DNA of 64,000 nt from Euryarchaeota archaeon UBA552 (GTDB lineage: Archaea; Thermoplasmatota; Poseidoniia; Poseidoniales; Thalassarchaeaceae): assembly GCA_002499585.1 (NCBI GenBank), contig DAMH01000011.1:15195-79194 (forward strand), written 5' to 3'. Below the pieces are notes generated by a model that did no database searches, was not told where the DNA came from, and saw only the letters and a program-made list of their open reading frames with translations. The translations under genes and the position numbers were made by a program. This document shows, piece by piece, positions 1,313 through 35,198 of this stretch (position 1 is its first letter; each line of letters starts with the position of its first letter).

Positions 1313-1397
1313 TGGTGCAGGGGGTGGGATTTGAACCCACGAAGGCCTTGCCACCGGAGCTTAAGTCCGGCCCCTTTGACCACTCGGGTACCCCTGC
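1313..1397 (-). tRNA. tRNA-Leu (anticodon UAA), CCA genomically encoded
   Basis: Manual fold of the reverse complement. Acceptor GCAGGGG/CCCCUGC, anticodon stem CCGGA/UCCGG with loop CUUAAGC (U33, anticodon UAA). Long variable arm typical of class II tRNA-Leu. T-arm GUGGG-UUCAAAU-CCCAC, discriminator A, then CCA. Confidence 0.85.
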
Positions 1398-1509: not shown

Positions 1510-4386
1510 ATGGACGGTGTAACCAAGGTACATGGAGCCACAAGGCTTCAGGTCACTGCCATCGTAATGGTGTTCATATTCCAACTTGGTGCAGCCCCTG
1601 TTACATACCTATCGAATGAGGCGCCCGAGGTGATGGAGTCAACCCCCTCCAACCAGATTGAAACCTACTCTCTGTACCTCTCCACCGGGAACAACCTGTC
1701 AACCGTTCTTCCTGATGAGGGCGGGCAGTTGGAATCCTCAGCACTTGACACCACAGTTGAGTTCACAACGGGAGACTTGATGCAGTCGCTGGTCGTGGTG
1801 GGAAACAAAAGACAGAATTCGGATGGCTCCAGCCAATACTACGTACCCCTCAACATTTTCCTCAAAGCCGAGGGGCCCCAGAACTCAATCGTAACTTGGA
1901 CATTTAGCATAAAATCAGGAGGTTCCACTGTTGCCACAGGAGAACTCGAGAATGAAGCATGCTCGGGCTTTGGAGGGTGTGATTATGAACACGAGGCCAT
2001 TGATATCTACATCTCAGGTCAAACCAGCACAAATTCATTTTCAGTATCAGAGTCCGACGAATTGGTACTTGCAATCAGGGCTGAGATGAGCGGATGCGGT
2101 GACGGGGGCTTCTTCAACGACTGTGAAGCAAATGTGGCCTTCAATCAAATCAGTGGAGACAGTAGGTCCTCTCTTATCGACATAAGCACAAATGCTGTCT
2201 CGGACACTGTCTTCTTCGTCCAACGCCCAGGAGATGAATTCATCGATGGCGCAGTCACGGATTGGTACCCAAACGACGTGATTACGGACCGAGAGATGCA
2301 GTTTAGTTTTGACGTGAAGAGTGCATTTGGTAGGAAGGATATCGAATCGGTGGAGCTGCGACTCCGCAACACTGAGAGAAACCAAATCATACTACAACGG
2401 GATCTAAATCCCGAATCCCAAGATATCGAGTGGACTACTGAGGGCATGTTTGGGCGTGTCAAGTGGACCTATCAAAGTGGCTTGGAGTCAGGGGCTTACG
2501 AGGCCGAGCTTAGGGTTTCAGACGTCCAATCAAACACCTTTACCATCACACATGAGACCCTGACAATGAATGAATTCGGAGTATCCTTGAAACACTCTGA
2601 AGACAGGTCAGTGGAGTATATCGCTCCTGGGGCCATTACCCCAGTTCCGCTCCAATTGATACACAGAGGCGATGCTACGCTGTCGATGAATGTGGAGTTG
2701 CAACTTCTGACCACACTGGGCTCAGACTGGTTAGTGGAGTTCGACAGCCCCGGGGGCTATACCATGAATTCCGGAGGGACCATTCTAAGTCCCATCATGA
2801 CCATAACGGCGCCACTCGATCTCAGTTTCGTCCCTCCAAAGATAAGAATCCGAGCGATTGGGGATGCGGAGGTGGGCGGATCTTTCGAGAGTGTTTCAGA
2901 CACACTCGTGCTGGACATCGAGAAGTTGCAGGTATATCAGCCGCCCTCCGTGGCCCTCTGGGACTACGAAAAAGAGACCCTCATTGCAAATTCTTCGATC
3001 CCGCAAATAGACTCCGGAGTACCGAGGTACGTTGAGAACGGGGAATTTAACCCATTTTTAATGGAGGTTTTCAACTCAGGATTCACCTCGGATTCTTTCC
3101 GGATCGATGTGTTGGAAAGGTCAAAAGCCATCATTCAGCTCTTCGATAATGACACAGGCCAAAGAATACTCGAAGATGACGACGACGGGACATTCCACAC
3201 GAAAGCCCTGGATCGTCACAACACACAATCAATAAGACTCTCAATCAAACCGTCAGGGGACAGATCAGATCCTGATATCGGCCTTATCCGACTGGAGGTG
3301 GCTAGCCTGAACAACAGCTCATTGAAAACAATCGTGGAGTTTACGATCCAAAGGACCTTTGGAATCAGGGCTGAAGTCTCTCAAGATTGTGATGGAGTTC
3401 CCTTGGGCTTCATTGAAACCGGCGACTGTACCTCCAATTCGATGAGGATTAGAATAACCAACAGCCTCTCAGGGGAATCGGGCCAGGCAACATCATGGCT
3501 CATAATTAATCCAGCATCGTTATCTGAGAACACGGATCGAAATCAGGCCTACGGTATCTGGACATACAACATAATTGACAGCGCTGGAGCCAATGCCCCC
3601 AAAGTTACACTGGGGCCGGATGATTTCATTGAGATCTTCATGACCATAGAGATGACCTCACAGGTGGTGCAAGGCAATCACACTGTGTACCTCAGAGTCA
3701 AGGAGGACGTCACGTCCGGAGAAGACGAAGCACGCTACTTCGATCTGGCAATAACACTCAACGTAAAGGCCGACGACCCACAGCTTGAACTCGTGCAAGT
3801 TACGTCCAACAGAGGCATCGCCCCAGGTGACGAATACGCTTACCAGATAAAAGTCAAGAACAAGGGGAATAGCCCACAAACTGTTCTTCTTTCTGCGAAC
3901 GTGGATGAGCAGGGGTGGAGTGTGGAAGTTGAGGGGCCATCCGGCTCCCCTCTTGTAGAAATTGCCCCCTTTGAGGAGTTAACCTTCAGAATCAGGGTCA
4001 CCTCGCCATCTGACGCCAACAATGGCGACAGAGTACCCGTTAGGGTTGAGGCAAGTCCGTTCGCAACCGACAAGGCATGGCCCGAGGAGTACACTGCTAA
4101 GTTGACTCTGACGATGGTCGTTGACATTTCGTCGGTAATAGACCTCCTGATGAACGAGGTCATGCATCCCCGTGGGTCGACCATCGTAGTTCTTGGGATA
4201 GCCCTGCTCCTACTCTTCGCTGGATTCCAGTCCAGAAACAGCAGGAGAAGAGTAGCAGCCCAAATGGCTCTTTTGGATGCATTGTCTAACGAGATGAATG
4301 TCCAGCCCGTGGTCGAGGAAGAAATCGGTGAAATACATGATGAAAGCCCTGATTATGATATCGATGACGACATCGAGTTAGTTTGA
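1510..4386 (+). CDS. Large membrane-anchored surface protein (958 aa) with CARDB-like domain, C-terminal TM helix and acidic tail
   Basis: Hydrophobic N-terminal segment LQVTAIVMVFIFQLGAAPV. CARDB/DUF11-like stretch YQIKVKNKGNSPQTVLLSANVDEQGWSVEVEG. C-terminal TM IVVLGIALLLLFAGF followed by basic residues (SRNSRRR) and the acidic tail EEEIGEIHDESPDYDIDDDIELV. Lies 58 bp upstream of the 2977-aa gene on the same strand, so probably co-transcribed. Confidence 0.6.
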   Translation: MDGVTKVHGATRLQVTAIVMVFIFQLGAAPVTYLSNEAPEVMESTPSNQIETYSLYLSTGNNLSTVLPDEGGQLESSALDTTVEFTTGDLMQSLVVVGNKRQNSDGSSQYYVPLNIFLKAEGPQNSIVTWTFSIKSGGSTVATGELENEACSGFGGCDYEHEAIDIYISGQTSTNSFSVSESDELVLAIRAEMSGCGDGGFFNDCEANVAFNQISGDSRSSLIDISTNAVSDTVFFVQRPGDEFIDGAVTDWYPNDVITDREMQFSFDVKSAFGRKDIESVELRLRNTERNQIILQRDLNPESQDIEWTTEGMFGRVKWTYQSGLESGAYEAELRVSDVQSNTFTITHETLTMNEFGVSLKHSEDRSVEYIAPGAITPVPLQLIHRGDATLSMNVELQLLTTLGSDWLVEFDSPGGYTMNSGGTILSPIMTITAPLDLSFVPPKIRIRAIGDAEVGGSFESVSDTLVLDIEKLQVYQPPSVALWDYEKETLIANSSIPQIDSGVPRYVENGEFNPFLMEVFNSGFTSDSFRIDVLERSKAIIQLFDNDTGQRILEDDDDGTFHTKALDRHNTQSIRLSIKPSGDRSDPDIGLIRLEVASLNNSSLKTIVEFTIQRTFGIRAEVSQDCDGVPLGFIETGDCTSNSMRIRITNSLSGESGQATSWLIINPASLSENTDRNQAYGIWTYNIIDSAGANAPKVTLGPDDFIEIFMTIEMTSQVVQGNHTVYLRVKEDVTSGEDEARYFDLAITLNVKADDPQLELVQVTSNRGIAPGDEYAYQIKVKNKGNSPQTVLLSANVDEQGWSVEVEGPSGSPLVEIAPFEELTFRIRVTSPSDANNGDRVPVRVEASPFATDKAWPEEYTAKLTLTMVVDISSVIDLLMNEVMHPRGSTIVVLGIALLLLFAGFQSRNSRRRVAAQMALLDALSNEMNVQPVVEEEIGEIHDESPDYDIDDDIELV

Positions 4387-4444: not shown

Positions 4445-7400
4445 ATGCAATCAGTCCAGGGCATCGCCGATAAGCGATCCGCAGTTCTACTGGTCGCATT
4501 GATGTTGATGTCATCGCTGGCCATTCTCCATATCGGAACGATGAGGGCCGCAGCATCTCTGGATGCCGATGGCGACGGGCTGGCCTATGGATTGGAGTTT
4601 TACATCAACACCCAGCCACAAGACTGGGACAGCGATGATGATGGCCTACCTGATGGTTGGGAGTGGAAATACGGGCTGGACCCGCTTTCTCCTAACGACC
4701 TGAATGGCTCAACCGGGGATCCAGATGGAGATCTCCTTACTAACCTCAACGAGTATCTATGGGGGATCCCTGCTGGTTGGGACGACGTATCGACCCCAAC
4801 CGTGCTCGACAACGGCGTCTGGTGGAACGGAACCGTTCCTGTCAGCGATTGGGACGAAGAATCCGCAATGCAGATAATACAGGGAAATGGTACCGATGGT
4901 GCCGATGAAGATCCTGCTGGGAATATATGTACGAACGGCTTTGATGACGACTACGATGGTTTAGTTGACTCCGCAGATCCTGATTTCGACGGCGACGCTG
5001 ATTGCGCATCCAATGATGACGATGGTGATGGTTTAATCGATGAGGATGTGGATGGCTGGGACACAGACGGCGACGGTATGGACGACGGCTGGGAAATCGC
5101 ATTTGGTCTGGACCCCACTGACGGTACTGGGCAAGACGGAGCCTACGGGGACCCCGATAATGACGGGTTGCTCAATCTATGGGAATACGTGAACCCCGCG
5201 TGGACCACAAGGGACGGCTCTACATTCCCGCCAACTCAGTATTTCCAGCCCGGGCCCGACATCGGTACGCAAACAGAAACCCCTTGCGACCCCGTTTTGT
5301 CCCTGGGGCCAGGGGGATGCGCCTTCCTTACCGCTGAAGTCGACTCGATAACCTTCACCGATCCATTTTCCAATGACACCGATGGCGACGGTCTCAATGA
5401 CTCGCGAGAAGCGCTGGTCCTCCTAACAGACCCTACATCAGTCGACACAGATAGGGATGGGATACCAGATGGTATCGAAGTTAACGGCAGCTACGGGAGC
5501 CCACCGCTTGCTTCCGACCCTAGGAACAACAATACAGATGGGGACCCGTTTGACGATGGTGTCGAAGACCTAAATTTCGATGGGGATGTGGACCCCGGTG
5601 AGACGGACCCAACAAGGATTGAGGATGATGGCGACGAGGATGAGGACGGGATTCCAAATTACATTGAAAACATAACATGCACCAAGTGGGATGTCCCCGA
5701 CACAGACTTCGGAGGGATAGACGACGGAACGGAAGGAGACATCCATGGTACAGATCCATGCAAGAGTGACACCATAGTAAACAGAACAATCACAGACTTC
5801 GACCTAGCCTTGCTCCAGATTACTCTGAATTCAACGGACGGAATTCCATCAGGTCCGAATTGGAGGAACCCAGAACAAATGTTGGGCATATATGTGACCT
5901 CCGATGGCTCAAGAACCCCTTTCCGTTGGCTCAGGATCGACAATCTATCAATCGATCAGATAGAACCCCCGCCCCCAAACAACACTGTCTGGGTGAATGT
6001 CCTCAACGGCTCTTGGTGTTGGAACAATACCGCGGGGGCGATCAACGACCCATGGTGTGATGACGACTATGCCGACACAGACGGTGATGGACTGGCAGAT
6101 TGGGAGGAGACACTTTCGACATACGGCTACTTCTCAAACCCGCTTGCAATCGATACAGATTCAGACGGCGTCGACGACTGGACTGAGGTATGGCTGGACG
6201 GAACAGACCCCGGTGAGCCCTGTTCGAACAGGCTAGACACTGATTCTGATGGACTCAACGACTATTTCGAAAATACAACAGGTTGCGATTTAACTTTCGC
6301 AAGTAACCTTTTGACCAACGGATCCACAGACGGTTGGGTCACACTGTGGAATGTCTCAGACACCGACCAGGGAGGGGTAGGTGACCTTGGTGAATATCTT
6401 GATGGGACCAACCCCCAAAACAACCCCTCAGATGACATGAATCCGTTGGACACAGATGGGGATGGCGTCCCTGACTTGAACGAGGAACAAGATGGCACGG
6501 ATCCGCTGGATCCAGATTCAGATGGCGACGGCATTCCTGATGGAGAAGAGGCTGCCCTCGGCCTCGACCCGTTGAACTACTCTTCGGCCTTTGATCCGGA
6601 TCAGATCATTGTCACGGGATTCAACGAGGGTGGGACCGCCAACATATCTGCGCCCCAATACTACAGGTGGTACACCTTCGACGAGTATCTGAACGGTTCA
6701 TGGGGGCTGAATCAATCTTCGTATGGATTGACGCAGATCCTCCTGGAGGAGGAAATATCATTGGGAACAGCCGATGTTTCTGTTTGGGGTGGCAACACCC
6801 ACTCATGGCAGATTAATTACTACGTCCCAGGTTTCGCTCAACCAGGAAAACATCTCGTTCTTCCACACAACACACTCAGCTTCAGCAGCCTCGTTCAACC
6901 AGATGCCTCTCTAAATTTGACGAACAGCACTCGGGATGTGATAGTCGATAACAACATGATCGAATCGCTGTTGATAGAGGCTCCAGATTACAATGTCTCT
7001 GCGGTCCAAAAACAGGAGTCATTACCAAAATCTTCGTCTGCGTACGGGCTCTACTACCCCCTGACAAATGAAACGAACAGAACCGCATCAATTTCCAGCG
7101 AGGTTATCTCTCAGGCCGGCGCCTTTTCCGCCTGGGAGAAAATTGAGGCGATCTCAAACTTCCTCACAAACGGCAATGCCACTGTGCAATTTCAATGGTC
7201 AGCATCAGGATCTGGATTCAAACAGCAAACAGGATCAGAAAATGGGCCAACTGACATCTCGACGTGGATCCTAGACTCTGCAAGGATAGGATCATGCGAC
7301 GAGTACGCTAGCACATTCGCTCTAATGCTCCGCACCGTAGGCATTCCAGCAAGGAAGGTCACCGGGTTTGCGGGAGGGGTCCAAGATCTAGATAGCAATT

Positions 7401-10400
7401 CCGTCTCCTTCTATGGTCGACACTTGACCTCCTGGGTCGAGGCTAACCTACAAACCAACGAAAACCTGGGGGGGATTGACCTGGGATGGCAGCCTTTCCA
7501 GGCATGCCCGCCGCCGCCTCCATTATCGCTAATCGAAGTGGTCAGAACAACTGGAGAACATGACCGCGATGGGTCCGACCAACTCTTCTTTGAGGCCAGA
7601 CTGGTTTACACTGAAAACGGAACACCTGTAAGCGACTCTCCGGTAAACGGCCATCTGATACCACAGTCCATTGCGACTGAAAACTCCTTTTACACGGCGC
7701 TTTCGAGTTTCGGCACGACTCAGACGAACGAAACCGGGTGGTTCAGAATCAACTCCAATGTGACCACGATGAGTTACCCTCGCCCGGGACTTGCAGTGTT
7801 CGTCATCGAAGTTCTGGGCGTAAACTCTGCTCCATACTCCTTGTTCACAAGTACAGGCGGAATCGCACAAAGCCCCAGTTTCATGTGGGGTCTGAACTTG
7901 TCGGATGACCCTTCGATTTCCTTCTTGAGCCCCCTGCCGACTTCCTTGCCTCCTGTGGGAGCAGGCGTCACAACCGATCTTGAGGGGCGGTTCATGTGGG
8001 AGAACCTCGACCTATCGGACCCCAGTGACCTGGATGACGAAATTACAGGCGCCTCGGCCTTCACTTTGTCCCTCGAATACACCACTGTGTCTCAAGGGAC
8101 GGTCAATCTGACAGCAAATGTGACCGATCTAGGCTTCTTTCAGTTTCCAGTCACTGTTGATGAGAATGAACCGCTTGGCCCTCTAAACGCTAGGGTTTGG
8201 TTCTCAGGGTGGCGCGAGGACGGGCAAGACCTATCCTCAACACCTCCCCATTTAAGGCCAAAAGGCATGAATTTCCAAATGAATGTCACACTTGCACCCG
8301 ATCTGGCGATCACAATGGAGGGCGGCTATCAGAACGCCAGCCTGCTGGGTATCAATGAGAACGTATCAATCAACGGTTCCGCCCTCAGCAGAGGTGGCAC
8401 CCCCGAACCAATGAACGGCACCCTGTTCATGGACATCCGTTCGGCTGCCTCGACAGGTGACTTCACGTCAATCACCTCTTGGTATCTAAACGACTCTGCA
8501 TGGGCCTCACAGGCCGGATTTTTCCAAATCACATGGAATTTCTCCGAAAACAGGGTGCCCATTCCATCGGGCTTGGTCGATGTCAGGTTTAGATACCTCG
8601 CTGATGGTTTGTCTGCCTCCGATTTCGAGATATTCGACAACGAATATGGGATATACGGGTACCTGAACTTCGACTACGCTCTCGAACCTTCCCTGAGAGG
8701 TGTTGAGACCACACTGCAGGTATCGGTAACTGACCATACAAATACCCCTCTTCAGCCATACTCGGGTGCCTTTACGTTGGACTATGATGGTGCACAGTTA
8801 TGGTCGCAGAACGGGTCGCAGACTTCAACGCTTGATGTGACATGGACTCCCGGATCAGGCGTTAGCGTCCCACCGGGCGACTACACTTGGGTGCTGAACT
8901 ACTCCGGATCGCAATATCTCAAACCCAGCTCGGTAGTTGATCTGCACCGTCTGCAGGCAGAGGCACAGGCCACATGGTCTCTGGATCGTGATTGGTTTCA
9001 TCGAAACACCACCGGCTGGGTCAATGGAACACTGGTAGACTCGATACTAGGCACCCCTGTTTTGGGTAACAACACCTCTGTGAGGGTCGACATCTCTGTG
9101 CCAGACACATCCGATTCAGCGGACCAGAGCCAGGGAACAGTGCAGGTACCTTTCACACAAGGTTGGTTGGACACCGCCAGTGGGAACTTCTCAATCCAGT
9201 TCACAACCCCTCTGAACCTCCGGTCTTCTGTCTATGAGTTACAGATAAACTTCGATTTCCTTCAAGGCCTTGAGGATGAGGGCGGCGCATACTATGTCAT
9301 GCCATTCGACGGGTCGCTCTTTTCCTCAATAGGTATAGAGACTGAGTTTGTAATCACCCCTGTGAGCGCCCAGGTAGAGGTAATTGCAGGTGAGGATTTC
9401 GAAGTTGCCGGCCTTGTGACTGATGTCTCGGATAATAGTCCAATTGCCGACGTCGAGGTTTCACTTTGGCTCGATCTCTCTGGTTTGAACGAGACAATCC
9501 TCGGTTTCGGAAATTCCTCATCGGACGGGACAGTGACCTTCAACACAACAATGCCGTCTACAATACCGCCGGGCAACATACAACTTACCATGATCATACA
9601 GGATGACCTGTCAGACAGCCTTGATCAGGAAGACCCCTCAAGAAGAACTGGAAATGATTCCCAGATGGATGCTATCGTGATAGTCCCGAGTGGGATTGCG
9701 ATCGATTCATCCCCCCCTTCTGTCGTGGCCGGTCAGAGCTTCACGGTCACTGGAAGGGTATTGGACGCTGTGGACAACAACAGAACTGTCGATGGCCCGA
9801 TGGCCCTTCAGGTCCGCTTCCTCAACGACGAAAGTGAAATTCTGGTCCAGAGTGTTTTATCCGCAGACAATGGCTCATTTTCTCTGGTCGTGCCAACAGA
9901 TCCACAAATGGATGGCGTGTCCAGCGGAAACAAGACATTGGTCATATCAATCATAAACGGCTCCACGCCATTCTACCTGACATCATCAGCCACGACGGAC
10001 ATCCTCGTAGTCGGAGTCACAGACTTCGTACAAACCCAACCCTCTACCTCAACCACTGTCGATCGGGGGGAATCCGTTTCATTCTCAGCTGTTTTGGTCG
10101 AGTCCTCAAATAGCGACGCGCCCATAGTCGGTGCAGAAGTCGCTGTCCGATTCCACCATACCTGGATCACACCCGAGATTACTTCGAACAACGGCTCAGT
10201 CATATTCCAATTTGGGGTGCCAAATGACCACCCTCTGGGACTCATCGAGATAAAATTCCAATTCAACGGCTCCACCGTCCTGTTAGCGTCAAACTCCTCG
10301 ATATTCAGGCTAACAGTCAGGTCTGACACACAATTGGTCATAGACCCCATCTCAGCCAATCCGACAGCAGGTGGATCCTTCGAGATATCAGGCACCTTGT

Positions 10401-13378
10401 TGAGTGGGAACGGCTCATCGCTCGTAAACAGAATCGGCTCGTCGCTACCGGTGGGAATTAATTTCCGACTGGACGGCTCAGACGATGGTTTCGGTCTGAA
10501 CTCGTTTTCGATAGCAACCAATGGGACGTGGAGCGTCAGGATGGTGCTTGATGGAGACACACCCAGGGGAAGCCATCTGGTAGAAGCTGTCTATTTGCCC
10601 GCTGTCCCCTACTTTTTGCAAAGCGAAGGCGCCGCAACCTTCGACAGCAGAGGATTTACTGCCACCACGGTAATCGATCCGCTGGACCTGGATCCAGATG
10701 GAAGAACCGTCCGAGGAGAAGACGTCACGATAAACGTCTCACTCATCGACAATACTGGGGATCCAGTTATCGCTTCAACAATCTCATTCTCCGTCAATGG
10801 ACAGTTCAATGGCACTGCGACGACAAATCAAGAGGGCATAGCAAGCTATACCCTGACTATAGATGACAAAACCAAACCAGGTTTCATGGAGGTAACCTCT
10901 ACTTTCCCCGGGCTCGCTGGGACCACAGGCCTCTCCAGCAGCACGGACACCGTGAGGATCGTGGTTTTAGCCCCAACAACAATCGATATCACATCGGTAT
11001 CCGGTACCGGAATAGCAGGGGAGAATCTTACATTCACAGGGACCCTGCTGGATGAACACGGATCCCAACTGATTGATTCAGACACACCTACCGCTGGGAT
11101 AATCCGTCTATCGGTGGATGGAGTTTCAATGGGTCCTGAATTCACTGTATTGAGTAATGCGACAACCGGTGAGTGGGAAATCACTATGACAATTCCCCTC
11201 GATGTGGTGTACGGATCACACAACGCGACCTTCGAATTCCTAGGCGGATTCACATGGGTGGACCCCATGGGCCAGGGCGATTCCCTGAATCCTGAGTTCT
11301 ACCTTCCGTCGAACTCGACAGTCGAGTATAATGCCACCCAGAATTCTCAGGTCATAATAACAACTCCTCCAACCAGTGTTGATAGGAACGACCTCTTGCT
11401 CATTGAGGGCAGAATAACCGACGGAATCGGACGTGTCCTTCCCGGCAGGTCGGTCTCTATTTCGATCGAAGGCAACTTTGTCACAGACTCAGTTGCGGAC
11501 AACGAGGGCAACTTCTCAGTATTCCTGCCAATTCCTTCTGACATGGAATTAGGTCCGAGAGTTGTCCGTGCAGCCTTCCTCGGAGAGATCTTCGTCCTGC
11601 CATCAAACGGTAGCACTGTTTTCACAGTTTACGCTCCTACCACCATATCGCTCGACCAAATCAGTCCTGCGGCTGTCGGAGATAAGATATCGATAACGGG
11701 GACCGTGAGTGACAACCTCCCTGGGGGTTTCATTCCCAACCACACTGTTGAGTTGGCTGTAGATGGCGTGTTCATCGGAGCCACGCTGACAGATCAAAAT
11801 GGGTCCTGGAACTTGCAGTGGACAGTTCCGGATTCCCTCGAGGTTGGGAATCATACGGTCAGAGTCACCGTGCCCCAACAAGGATATTACAGGGCGAGCA
11901 TGACCGAGGAAACACTCTCAATCGCATATCACACATCAATATCGCTCGAGATAGCCCAGCCTTCAGTGACCCGCGGGGATTCATGGATCGTCACCGGGAG
12001 GTTGTATGACGATGATACGATAGGCTCACCGGGCTTAGAAAACAGGGATCTCCTGGTTCAACTGGATGGTAATCTCGTTGCCGCTACGGTCACAGGGGCC
12101 AATGGCCTGTTCTCTCTCGAGATTCCAGTCGAAATTTCCGCCGCAAGGGGAGAGCACCTGATATCCATACAATACGAAGGTGAGACCCTGTACCTCCCTG
12201 CCACATCAAATTCATCTGTTATCGCCAAGTCGAATGTGGAGATTCAAGTCATATGGTCCGACGCCAGCGTCATCAGAAGTGACCCCAACAATCCAATCAA
12301 GATCGAGGGGAGGGTCCTAGAGGTAGGGGGAGATTCCGAAATCATCCGTGATATCGACGTTACCCTGTCGTGGAATGGCCAGGTCAAGCCCTCAACGCTG
12401 AGATGGGACGATTCAACCGGCCACTTTGAAATCGAGGCTCCATCGCTCGCCTCGTACCCCCCGGGCAACCTTGAGATGACCATCACCGCATCACCCCCTG
12501 CATCCCTATTCATGAATGAGGGCAATGTCAACTACACGATTTTGATGAGGGTGCCTGTTTTCTTCAACTTCGAACCTTCGTCATTCATCATATACGATGG
12601 CATCAGAACCATCGAAGGTAGAACGATTGTCACCGCCCAGGACACAAACGAGTTTGTAGAGGGGGTTGCGATAACAGCAATCCTCGTCAACAACACAGGG
12701 GCTGTGTTTACAGTCACAAAGGCGACGGATTCTGAAGGAATTGCAGATTACTCATTTTCAACTGAAGACCCAATACCTGAATTCTCTCGATCTGGTTATT
12801 GGGGGGACTTGAGCATAGAATTCAGCACCGACTCCGAGATCATAGATCCACAAGACAGAATTTGGCTAACAATCGCGCATGGAGGCCTGAACATCACATA
12901 TTTCGTCGAGGACTCACCGCTACTTAACCAACAGACCCTGATCATCGTATCGATTTTCAGCATCATAGCCCTCTCCACTTTGTTCTACTCGCGGCGAAGG
13001 AAGGCAAAGCGGCTCCGTGAGTTTTCAAACATATTTGGCTATGCAGCAGAACTACTCGCCGCCGGGGACGAAATAAGGGAAGCCATCTTCAACTGCTACG
13101 AGGGTTTGGTCTCTGTTCTGCAAAAGAGAGGGTTTCTCAGAAGAGACTTTGAGACTGTGAGGGAGTTCGAGGTTGCAATTAGGAAAGCCCTCCCGATACG
13201 GGAAGAGGCCCTAATTTCCTTAGACAGAGTCTTCGAAGAGGCCCGTTATTCGTCACATGAGCTTGGAGACTCAGAAAGGGCCCGCGCTAAGGCCGCACTA
13301 AGTGATGTATTGAGGGCAATAAGTGAGATGCAGGATGTTCCAGATAGGTCGGCGGAGTTAATCGAAGATGACTACTAA
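4445..13378 (+). CDS. Giant surface protein (2977 aa): signal peptide, acidic calcium-binding (thrombospondin type 3-like) repeats, transglutaminase-like core, tandem Ig-like repeats, C-terminal TM and DUF4129-like cytoplasmic domain
   Basis: Signal-like N-terminus [24 protein letters not shown]. Dozens of DxDxDGxxDxxE motifs ([37 protein letters not shown] and others). [30 protein letters not shown] plus downstream [10 protein letters not shown] and DLGWQPF fit the transglutaminase-like Cys-His-Asp core. About twelve ~90-aa repeats follow (ITGTVSDN..., IEGRITDG..., [11 protein letters not shown]...). Then TM [17 protein letters not shown] + RRRKAKR and a cytoplasmic tail with a TPREY-like motif (FETVREFEV), resembling DUF4129 of TgpA-type proteins. 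Confidence 0.75.
   Translation: [2977 protein letters not shown]
4560..6600 (+). repeat. Coding region packed with acidic calcium-binding (thrombospondin type 3-like) repeats in the 2977-aa protein
   Basis: Recurring Asp-rich motifs D-x-D-x-DG-(L/I/M)-x-D-x-x-E and GWExxxGLDP throughout aa ~40-720 of the product. Confidence 0.6.
7180..7530 (+). other. Transglutaminase-like (cysteine protease fold) core domain inside the 2977-aa protein
   Basis: [27 protein letters not shown] holds the candidate catalytic Cys. [12 protein letters not shown] holds the His. [11 protein letters not shown] holds the Asp. Order and spacing match the transglutaminase-like superfamily. Confidence 0.6.
9350..12780 (+). 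repeat. About twelve tandem ~270-bp coding repeats encoding Ig-like / carboxypeptidase-regulatory-like beta-sandwich domains
   Basis: Periodic motif of the form G(D/E)x(F/I)x(V/I)xGx(V/L)xDxxGxP(V/I)...V...(V/L)...G...(T/S)...G.(F/W)(S/N)....P, recurring roughly every 90 aa from [27 protein letters not shown] to [24 protein letters not shown]. Confidence 0.55.
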
Positions 13379-35123: not shown

Positions 35124-35198
35124 GCCACTGTGGCTTAGGGGTATAGCGTCGCCTTGGTAAGGCGAAGGTCGGGGGTTCAATTCCCCCCAGTGGCTCCA
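35124..35198 (+). tRNA. tRNA-Thr (anticodon GGU), CCA encoded
   Basis: Acceptor GCCACUG/CAGUGGC. Anticodon stem UCGCC/GGCGA with loop UUGGUAA (anticodon GGU). T-arm GGGGG-UUCAAUU-CCCCC. Discriminator U, then CCA. An A9 tract follows. Confidence 0.85.

Follow-up and report, generated by a model that had tools for sequence, protein, structure and literature searches.

A giant single-pass TgpA-family surface protein of Poseidoniales with a probably non-catalytic transglutaminase fold

The stretch of 64,000 nucleotides from Euryarchaeota archaeon UBA552 analysed here (referred to as the window) encodes a giant single-pass member of the TgpA family that is probably non-catalytic. Its ectodomain of ~2790 residues comprises, from the tip inwards, an acidic region of thrombospondin type 3 (TSP3) motifs, a copy of the TgpA periplasmic domain and an Ig-like stalk. 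As judged from alignments, the TgpA-like domain keeps the nucleophile cysteine and has lost the catalytic histidine at the level of the whole clade. Because of this loss, the TgpA-like fold is more likely to serve for binding, as part of an adhesin-like fibre, than for catalysis. We favor, with about even confidence, a model in which this giant surface protein descends from the TgpA family, is vertically inherited in marine group II archaea (Poseidoniales) and would carry a non-catalytic TgpA-descended fold on a Ca2+-stiffened, glycosylated surface fibre of adhesive or binding function. Marine group II archaea, abundant in the surface waters of the ocean, have not been cultured, and their contact with particles, cells and polymers has been inferred mainly from gene lists.

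The 2977-residue open reading frame delimited in the first-pass annotation was recovered over the same span, together with its single C-terminal transmembrane segment (Table 1). Hydropathy analysis revealed only two hydrophobic segments in the whole protein, at residues 10–34 and 2826–2850, and the second is followed directly by RRRKAKR, so that the tail side fits the cytoplasm. The protein is strongly acidic (D+E 439 versus K+R 123) and contains 76 N-X-S/T sequons, compared with ~30 expected. Four full-length orthologues of closely similar size (2970–2978 residues) show 72–73% identity.

Table 1. Features of the giant protein gene and its upstream neighbor, in positions of the window (residue numbers refer to the giant protein)
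Feature	Residues	Position	Strand	Basis
Upstream partner gene, 958-aa predicted surface protein		1510..4386	+	ORF and profile scans
Giant ORF, predicted type I membrane glycoprotein, 2977 aa		4445..13378	+	ORF call, translation, hydropathy
N-terminal signal-like segment (K/R, hydrophobic core, AAAS)	1-38	4445..4558	+	hydropathy; cleavage site inferred
Membrane-distal acidic region, ~15 DxDxDGxxD motifs, five conserved Cys pairs	39-719	4559..6601	+	motif scan, TSP3_bac
Whole TgpA periplasmic domain homologue: beta-rich N-subdomain, then transglutaminase core	720-1030	6602..7534	+	AF2 + Foldseek
Pfam Transglut_core	918-1018	7196..7498	+	E=1.6e-10, 41.7 bits, cut-off 23
Cys951, canonical nucleophile position, clade-invariant	951	7295..7297	+	alignments
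His993-Leu994-Thr995; Thr995 in the canonical catalytic His column	993-995	7421..7429	+	alignments
Gln1019 (canonical Asp column), Ala1020, Cys1021 (clade-invariant)	1019-1021	7499..7507	+	alignments
Stalk of tandem Ig-like (Big_3_5-type) beta-sandwich repeats	1031-2790	7535..12814	+	profile searches
Single C-terminal TM; hydrophobic core ~2831-2848	2826-2850	12920..12994	+	hydropathy
Cytoplasmic tail, starts with RRRKAKR; holds DUF4129	2851-2977	12995..13375	+	Pfam, alignment, AF2

The membrane-distal region holds 14–15 strict DxDxDGxxD motifs (~22 with a loose pattern), all of them inside residues 40–711, and not the ~30 calcium-binding repeats counted at first. In this regard, the TSP3_bac profile scores 36.8 bits on residues 1–719 (cut-off 25), a thrombospondin type 3-like match from which Ca2+ binding is predicted. 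The calcium-dependent stalk of the first-pass annotation was misplaced, since the calcium-binding repeats lie in the N-terminal part, farther from the membrane than the transglutaminase-like domain, and the stalk itself is Ig-like, with 13 strong and 2–3 weak repeats between residues 1030 and 2790 instead of about 12. Many Poseidoniales carry thrombospondin-type genes, which have been connected with adhesion (PMC6461757). In the present protein, what points to an adhesive role is the set of its domain types.

The transglutaminase-like core that had been noticed in the middle of the ectodomain is well supported, both by a Transglut_core match above the Pfam cut-off and by its fold. An AF2 model of residues 720–1080 (pLDDT 79.4, pTM 0.80) matched the TgpA structure 6G49 in Foldseek with E=1.8e-13 and a target TM-score of 0.63 over 310 aligned columns. 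TgpA is also the best solved relative by sequence (6g49, E=1.6e-4; clade profile, E=2.8e-11). No match to PF11992 (TgpA_N/DUF3488) was found in the giant protein at E<=1, and its N-terminus has one hydrophobic segment only. Word-indexed homologue searches with the transglutaminase region returned almost exclusively short fragments (one match with the single sequence and 11 with the clade profile); the full-length relatives discussed below came from an exhaustive search of representatives.

Our alignments indicate that the Cys-His-Asp triad is incomplete at its canonical positions. The first-pass annotation had read a full triad in this core and had proposed conservation of the catalytic cysteine in orthologues as a test of it; the cysteine holds, Cys951 being invariant at the nucleophile position, but the histidine and aspartate that had been read as its partners, His993 and Asp1012, lie off the canonical columns. 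The canonical histidine column (H-x-W-x-E) is occupied by T, S, N, D, L or A in 13 out of 13 clade domains, with Thr995 in the query, and the catalytic histidine is missing from its column in every relative that has the architecture of the giant protein. Across these relatives of the same architecture, no histidine is conserved anywhere in the TgpA-like domain. His993 is placed two residues upstream of the H-x-W-x-E histidine and is kept in the query, in its four orthologues and in P0001 and P0123; its column shows H in the query lineage and P0133 alone, and D, S or N in most relatives. A role for His993 as a shifted catalytic histidine at the family level was rejected on account of these D, S and N residues, while a substitution for the lost histidine is possible for the query lineage alone. 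Regarding the aspartate, column 1019 is Gln in the query and D, E or N in the relatives, mostly D or E; Asp1012 is ~90% conserved, but it is not the catalytic column. Around the active site, the W997-x-E999 and G-W motifs are retained.

A second clade-invariant cysteine, Cys1021, takes the position of the Thr of 'DPT' in canonical relatives; in human TG2, the residue at Asp+2, Thr360, lines the active-site tunnel (PMC13073648). All 17 representative domains bearing Cys1021 are without the canonical histidine, none of 41 domains with the canonical histidine carries Cys1021, and the nucleophile cysteine co-occurs perfectly with this clade-specific residue. The histidine loss and the cysteine gain are confined to one clade, and thus represent one evolutionary event and not independent covariation. 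The co-occurrence of the nucleophile and the clade-specific cysteine suggests a disulfide. Such a Cys951–Cys1021 bond is plausible from the sequences because the ectodomain cysteines come in conserved pairs: the 12 of them form six conserved sequential pairs, and relatives gain or lose cysteines pairwise, as seen in P0139 for the pairs of the acidic region. The spacing of Cys951 and Cys1021, 70 residues as compared to 11–27 in the other pairs, speaks against it.

These observations bear directly on the idea, which we consider unlikely, of an active surface enzyme: a cysteine transglutaminase, deamidase or protease whose catalytic residues are arranged in a non-canonical way. In such an enzyme, Cys951 would work either with an acidic residue elsewhere or, in this lineage, with a His993 displaced by one strand register, and the fibre would present the domain at a distance from the cell, where it could modify or cleave proteins of the surroundings. 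The invariant Cys951, the retained W-x-E and G-W motifs and the mostly acidic column 1019 also fit a retained non-canonical activity, as would the conservation of His993 among the sequences listed above, the Pfam score over the cut-off and the transglutaminase activity measured in vitro for residues 180–544 of TgpA (PMC3507681). However, the domain has no conserved histidine across relatives of the same architecture, the query carries Gln at the aspartate column, and Cys1021 tracks the histidine loss perfectly. In addition, the Transglut_core score falls far under that of P0229, a canonical relative (95 bits), and no module of the protein is less conserved than the TgpA-like domain, with 24–41% identity in distant relatives versus 42–66% for the TSP3 region. 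With the histidine gone from its canonical column clade-wide, Gln1019 in the query and conservation at its lowest in this module, the surface cross-linking or protease activity put forward in the first-pass annotation is unsupported.

In the binding-module reading that we prefer, the TgpA-like domain would have ceased to work as a transglutaminase or protease of the canonical Cys-His-Asp kind, a disulfide to the clade-specific Cys1021 would probably lock Cys951, and the fold could be used to bind ligands or as a scaffold, in the manner of band 4.2 or XPC. In line with this notion, inactive transglutaminase folds are known to act as scaffolds or binders (PMC10318531; band 4.2, PMC13073648). The whole protein may then behave as a glycosylated fibre, stiffened by Ca2+, that serves adhesion or binding. 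A more specific version of this proposal, which we advance only tentatively and regard as the weaker bet, is that of a Poseidoniales-wide TgpA lineage whose active site would have turned structural or redox through a Cys951–Cys1021 disulfide, with the histidine discarded, leaving a pseudoenzyme on a ~3000-residue fibre constrained at its calcium-binding tip and at its DUF4129 bundle.

The giant protein probably acts with a co-conserved membrane protein of 958 residues, encoded directly upstream across a gap of 58 nt. In this protein, a hydrophobic segment at the N-terminus and a C-terminal TM are accompanied by an Ig-like domain (FixG_C/NPCBM_assoc) and by an acidic tail whose last residues are DIELV; comparison with solved structures gave no informative match. 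L001-L004, L005 and the P0128 contig each have, at this position and on the strand of the giant gene, a gene for ~950–970 residues (49% identity between the 958-residue protein and the L005 copy), and the gene order SDR-FolB-pair-XPD is fixed in all relatives examined, down to ~30% identity. Neither AAA_3/MoxR nor DUF58 was found in the scanned ORFs of the window or among the genes called for L005 and for the P0128 contig. The window also encodes three more large surface proteins.

Both members of the gene pair could alternatively be structural envelope components, the giant protein forming an S-layer-like or canopy structure with the 958-residue glycoprotein instead of being a dedicated adhesin; we hold this to be distinctly improbable. 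Both proteins start with a signal-like segment and carry a TM at the C-terminal end, and the giant one has the traits of S-layer-type glycoproteins, namely (i) a signal-like start, (ii) a C-terminal anchor, (iii) an acidic composition and (iv) many sequons. Moreover, the fixed housekeeping position of the pair is as expected of a core envelope gene. However, profile and solved-structure searches identified no known S-layer protein similar to either of them, and the three further large surface proteins of the window mean that the pair is not unique.

Turning to the cytoplasmic side, the DUF4129-like module anticipated in the first-pass annotation was recognized by Pfam (PF13559, residues 2884–2952, 31.0 bits versus a cut-off of 24.8), and its TPREY-like motif corresponds to T2904-V-R-E-F, invariant in 61 out of 61 aligned tails. 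Other invariant motifs of the tail are E..LA.GD..R, CY, LRRDFETVREFE and D..FE.ARY. The AF2 model of the tail is all-helical, a predicted helical bundle, and Foldseek returned no significant match to it in the PDB (best E=0.21). A HEPN domain was also considered for the tail, but its Rx4-6H RNase motif is not conserved: R2934 is invariant, but the histidine stands at +4 (His2938, R-x3-H) and is found in only 61 of ~120 homologues. The DUF4129 core is the most conserved part of the protein, reaching 71–79% identity in relatives whose TgpA-like domain is at 24–41%, and this pattern suggests that selection acts mainly on the calcium-binding tip and on the cytoplasmic DUF4129 tail. In our preferred reading, the conserved bundle would connect the fibre, as its anchor or coupler, with a conserved partner inside the cell. 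Literature searches found no work linking DUF4129 with transglutaminase, or Marine Group II with transglutaminase, and the DUF4129 literature that was found is uninformative. An outside-in signalling or mechanosensing receptor, passing ligand binding or tension from the ectodomain through the TM and the DUF4129 bundle to a cytoplasmic effector, would account for the tail being by far the most conserved part and would recall a passage in PMC6803598 where bifidobacterial TgpA-like Tgm proteins are proposed to participate in signal transduction, but it is very unlikely, given that none of the nearby genes scanned is a kinase, MoxR, DUF58 or another gene of signalling, that the tail shows neither a significant PDB match nor a conserved HEPN motif, and that anchoring explains its conservation equally well.

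Taken together, our findings describe a gene pair that is a fixed syntenic part of Poseidoniales genomes, the giant protein being among the largest surface proteins that these genomes encode. Automatic annotation names this protein a transglutaminase, whereas the evidence presented here suggests that the fold is probably non-catalytic; with the tip and the tail probably being the constrained parts, follow-up work shifts from enzyme assays to binding, anchoring and partners. In addition, the transglutaminase-TM-DUF4129 cassette can occur without TgpA_N, MoxR or DUF58, which constrains ideas on the role of DUF4129. If the reading of the protein as a pseudoenzyme-bearing fibre is true, DUF4129 would gain its first functional context, anchoring or coupling a giant surface fibre on the cytoplasmic side, and a core organelle of envelope or adhesion type would have been identified in the most abundant archaea of the surface ocean. 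Databases already label fragments of these proteins as 'transglutaminase domain-containing' or 'DUF4129 domain-containing', and in this regard our finding elaborates a known architecture.

Among known systems, the best match in both sequence and fold is the periplasmic domain of TgpA (PA2873; 6G49) from Pseudomonas aeruginosa. The TgpA family shows the same order of modules, with an extracytoplasmic transglutaminase fold, one TM and a cytoplasmic DUF4129 (T-x-R-E ... A-R-Y-S), so that the TgpA-like order with a much larger ectodomain described in the first-pass annotation holds; P0229 presents this canonical order (TgpA_N, Transglut_core and DUF4129), and its tail aligns directly with that of the giant protein. 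Unlike TgpA, which begins with a polytopic TgpA_N of ~5 TM helices, the giant protein has a signal-like segment in its place, and it further differs by ~680 residues of TSP3 motifs before the transglutaminase fold and ~1750 residues of Ig-like repeats after it, by the loss of the catalytic histidine, the Gln at the aspartate column and the extra invariant cysteine, and by its archaeal host and its neighborhood devoid of MoxR and DUF58. According to a passage in PMC6803598, citing Wong and Houry 2012, TgpA-type genes are associated with genes for DUF58 and for an ATPase of the MoxR (MRP) type.

TgpA-like giants with several transglutaminase domains, which came up among the distant matches (e.g., P0147, P0151 and P0153), share with the present protein a length of 1500–3250 residues, Ig-like arrays, a C-terminal TM and a weakly similar DUF4129-like tail with T-P-R-E, which also aligns with its tail. 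They differ in keeping a TgpA_N-like bundle of 4–6 TM helices and 3–4 tandem Transglut_core domains with the canonical Q-A-H-Q-W-A-E histidine, and in being without the TSP3 head and the Cys1021 signature. The models of Myxococcus MtsD and CglD gave partial N-terminal matches via the TSP3 repeats, with scores of 67 and 60 bits that are far under their equivalog cut-offs (800 and 400). The logic of a calcium-binding head on a long Ig-like array is shared with CglD/MtsD and with bacterial giant Ig-repeat adhesins, all of which are without the transglutaminase fold, the TM and the DUF4129 module. Finally, band 4.2/EPB42, XPC/Rad4 and FBXO21 have likewise kept the transglutaminase fold with an incomplete triad and put it to scaffolding or binding use. 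These proteins are, however, eukaryotic and intracellular, and band 4.2 has lost its triad wholly, whereas the giant protein of Poseidoniales keeps the cysteine, possibly as one half of a disulfide.

By hydropathy, the 2977-aa product of the giant gene has two hydrophobic segments only, aa 10-34 and aa 2826-2850. The latter is directly followed by the stretch RRRKAKR, and the last ~127 residues are therefore expected to lie in the cytoplasm, with ~2790 residues outside. The protein is strongly acidic (439 D+E vs 123 K+R) and carries 76 N-X-S/T sequons, as compared to ~30 expected. Pfam assigns Transglut_core to aa 918-1018 (41.7 bits, cut-off 23) and DUF4129 to aa 2884-2952 (31.0 bits, cut-off 24.8), together with Big_3_5 Ig-like and TSP3_bac repeats; the transglutaminase-like and DUF4129 modules predicted by the first-pass annotation are thus real, both exceeding curated thresholds. 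That annotation also counted ~30 calcium-binding repeats and placed them in the stalk, which overstates their number and mislocates them: 14-15 strict DxDxDGxxD motifs (~22 with a loose pattern) all fall within aa 40-711, a distal head that partially matches MtsD and CglD, two TSP3 proteins of Myxococcus. The Ig-like repeats of the stalk occupy aa 1030-2790 (13 strong and 2-3 weak, by iterated profile).

Among solved structures, the periplasmic domain of P. aeruginosa TgpA is closest to the query in sequence (6g49; E-value 1.6e-4 with the single sequence, 2.8e-11 with the clade profile). Residues 720-1080 were also modelled with AF2 (pLDDT 79.4, pTM 0.80), and Foldseek aligned this model with 6G49 across 310 columns (E=1.8e-13, target TM-score 0.63); on this model the query contains a complete two-subdomain TgpA ectodomain, more than the core alone. 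In TgpA, the periplasmic domain (aa 180-544), for which transglutaminase activity has been measured, lies between five N-terminal TM helices and a sixth TM (PMC3507681). P0229, a canonical relative of 731 aa, combines TgpA_N, Transglut_core and DUF4129, and the query tail aligns directly with the P0229 tail and with those of other giants, which read T-P-R-E ... F-E-E-A-x-Y-S. The module order first proposed, transglutaminase fold, TM and cytoplasmic DUF4129, is therefore that of TgpA. A helical structure is predicted for the tail (pLDDT 73.6), and a Foldseek comparison of the tail model with the PDB gave no significant match.

When 1.84 billion representatives were searched exhaustively, 1037 relatives were retrieved at E<=1e-3. 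They split into three classes: (a) proteins of ~2940-3090 aa with the query architecture (P0122, P0128, P0130, P0131, P0139 and fragments), (b) giants (1500-3250 aa) that combine a TgpA_N-like TM bundle with 3-4 canonical transglutaminase cores, and (c) TgpA-like proteins of the ordinary kind, 600-870 aa long. In the multi-transglutaminase giants with a TgpA_N-like bundle and tandem Transglut_core (P0138, P0142-P0144, P0147, P0149, P0151-P0153), the nucleophile Cys of the first copy is often replaced by Ser, Ala or Gly, and later copies retain Cys and the canonical His. The closest database fragments are labelled Candidatus Poseidoniales, Thalassarchaeaceae, Poseidoniaceae or Thermoplasmatota. 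One tail homologue, from a match list including P0070, P0018, P0059 and P0061, is labelled 'Pelagibacteraceae bacterium', probably through MAG contamination, and several JGI fragments are clearly misnamed (nitrate reductase beta subunit, predicted deacylase, Flp pilus assembly protein TadB).

The Cys-His-Asp triad initially proposed for this domain does not hold. The His motif of classes (b) and (c) is A-H-[AQ]-W-[AV]-E. Class (a) has an invariant W-x-E, but its canonical His column is occupied by T, S, N, D, L or A. In the column of the canonical Asp (G-W-x-x-x-D), the query has Gln1019 and P0001 has Glu, with D/E/N in other relatives; the Asp originally chosen, D1012, is conserved but sits outside this column. 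Cys951 is present in 13/13 class (a) domains that cover the position. Two residues upstream of the canonical His, the column of His993 has H in the query lineage and P0133 only, and D, S or N outside them; no invariant His was found anywhere in the class (a) transglutaminase-like domain. In a less likely rival reading, the domain would be a non-canonical active enzyme that uses His993 in the query lineage.

A second Cys, Cys1021 (F-[DEQ]-A-C-P), is also invariant in class (a); the corresponding motif of canonical relatives is F-D-P-T-P. Among representative domains spanning both columns, the canonical His is missing in 17/17 with Cys1021, and Cys1021 occurs in 0/41 with the canonical His, an association confined to a single clade that counts as one evolutionary event. 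Through the TG2 motif GWQALDPTP, we take Cys1021 to occupy the Asp+2 position, that of Thr360 in human TG2. Conservation of Thr360 is strict among active enzymes, and the residue lines the active-site tunnel together with Trp241 and Trp332 (PMC13073648). The 12 ectodomain Cys form six sequential pairs kept across relatives (162/187, 281/292, 412/439, 525/538, 593/614, 951/1021); 162/187 is lost together in P0139, and additional Cys in relatives are mostly adjacent pairs too. From this pattern, Cys951 and Cys1021 are probably joined by a disulfide.

An enzyme domain normally ranks among the best conserved parts of a protein. The TgpA-like domain is the least conserved module here: identities of the query to P0122, P0128, P0130, P0131 and P0139 are 24-41% for this domain, 27-41% for the Ig-like stalk, 42-66% for the TSP3 head and 71-79% for the DUF4129 core. 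The motifs E..LA.GD..R, CY, LRRDFETVREFE and D..FE.ARY are invariant in 61-121 tails. As far as alignments indicate, conservation points to tail and tip.

Full-length orthologues (2970-2978 aa, 72-73% identity) are present in four GTDB species representatives. The locus order SDR, FolB, ~950-970-aa membrane protein, giant gene, small opposite-strand ORF and XPD is the same in relatives whose TgpA-like region is just 43% (P0122) or 31% (P0128) identical, and the 958-aa upstream protein shares 49% identity with its counterpart in L005, a related locus. The giant gene and its upstream gene are a core pair, inherited vertically, and not a mobile oddity; in a second, less likely rival reading, their products would form an S-layer-like envelope pair. 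The cytoplasmic tail of the 958-aa protein ends in an acidic D-[ED]-D-[IV]-E-L-V, common to the L005 orthologue, which could be an interaction site. Genes near the giant ORF include XPD helicase, Rpb7/RpoE, RtcB, archaease and an archaeal-type D-aminoacyl-tRNA deacylase; together with the taxonomic labels of the closest database fragments, they assign the window to a marine group II archaeon. In L005 and the P0128 contig, a 140-160-aa gene occupies the slot between giant gene and XPD. With three other large predicted surface proteins, the region has unusually many giant envelope proteins. The true start codon of the 2434-aa ORF must lie downstream of the overlapping tRNA-Thr.

Features of the window discussed here
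Feature	Position	Strand	Remarks
tRNA-Leu(TAA)	1313..1397	-	between folB and 958-aa partner gene
958-aa partner	1510..4386	+	
Giant ORF, 2977 aa	4445..13378	+	without interruption
Small ORF, 138 aa	13375..13791	-	overlaps giant ORF stop codon by 4 nt; no match in Pfam scan
Large predicted surface protein, 2008 aa	20919..26945	-	FG-GAP_3, CARDB, FixG_C matches
tRNA-Thr(GGT)	35124..35198	+	overlaps mechanically listed TTG start (35154) of 2434-aa ORF
Large predicted surface protein, 2434 aa	35154..42458	+	DUF7151
Large predicted surface protein, 1009 aa	51859..54888	+	TSP3_bac repeats

Taken together, the best-supported reading of these sequence features is that the giant protein would descend from a TgpA ancestor and form a calcium-binding, glycosylated surface fibre. 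The transglutaminase fold would have turned into a non-catalytic binding or scaffolding module, and inside the cell the fibre would be anchored or coupled through its conserved cytoplasmic DUF4129 bundle. In a third rival reading, also less likely, the protein would be an outside-in receptor. Non-catalytic transglutaminase folds have precedents in band 4.2, XPC and FBXO21 (PMC10318531, PMC13073648), and thrombospondin-type genes are widespread in Poseidoniales, where Rinke et al. tied them to adhesion (PMC6461757).

The domain combination itself is the already known TgpA architecture, and databases label fragments of the giant protein accordingly. What is new is the ~3000-aa single-pass form with TSP3 head and Ig-like stalk, the gain of Cys1021 accompanied by loss of the catalytic His throughout the clade, the conservation pattern pointing to tail and tip, and the independence from TgpA_N, MoxR and DUF58. 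In this regard, a MoxR-DUF58 neighbourhood usually accompanies TgpA-type genes (PMC6803598); none was found among the scanned ORFs of the window or in related loci, and Pfam gave no TgpA_N match in the giant protein.
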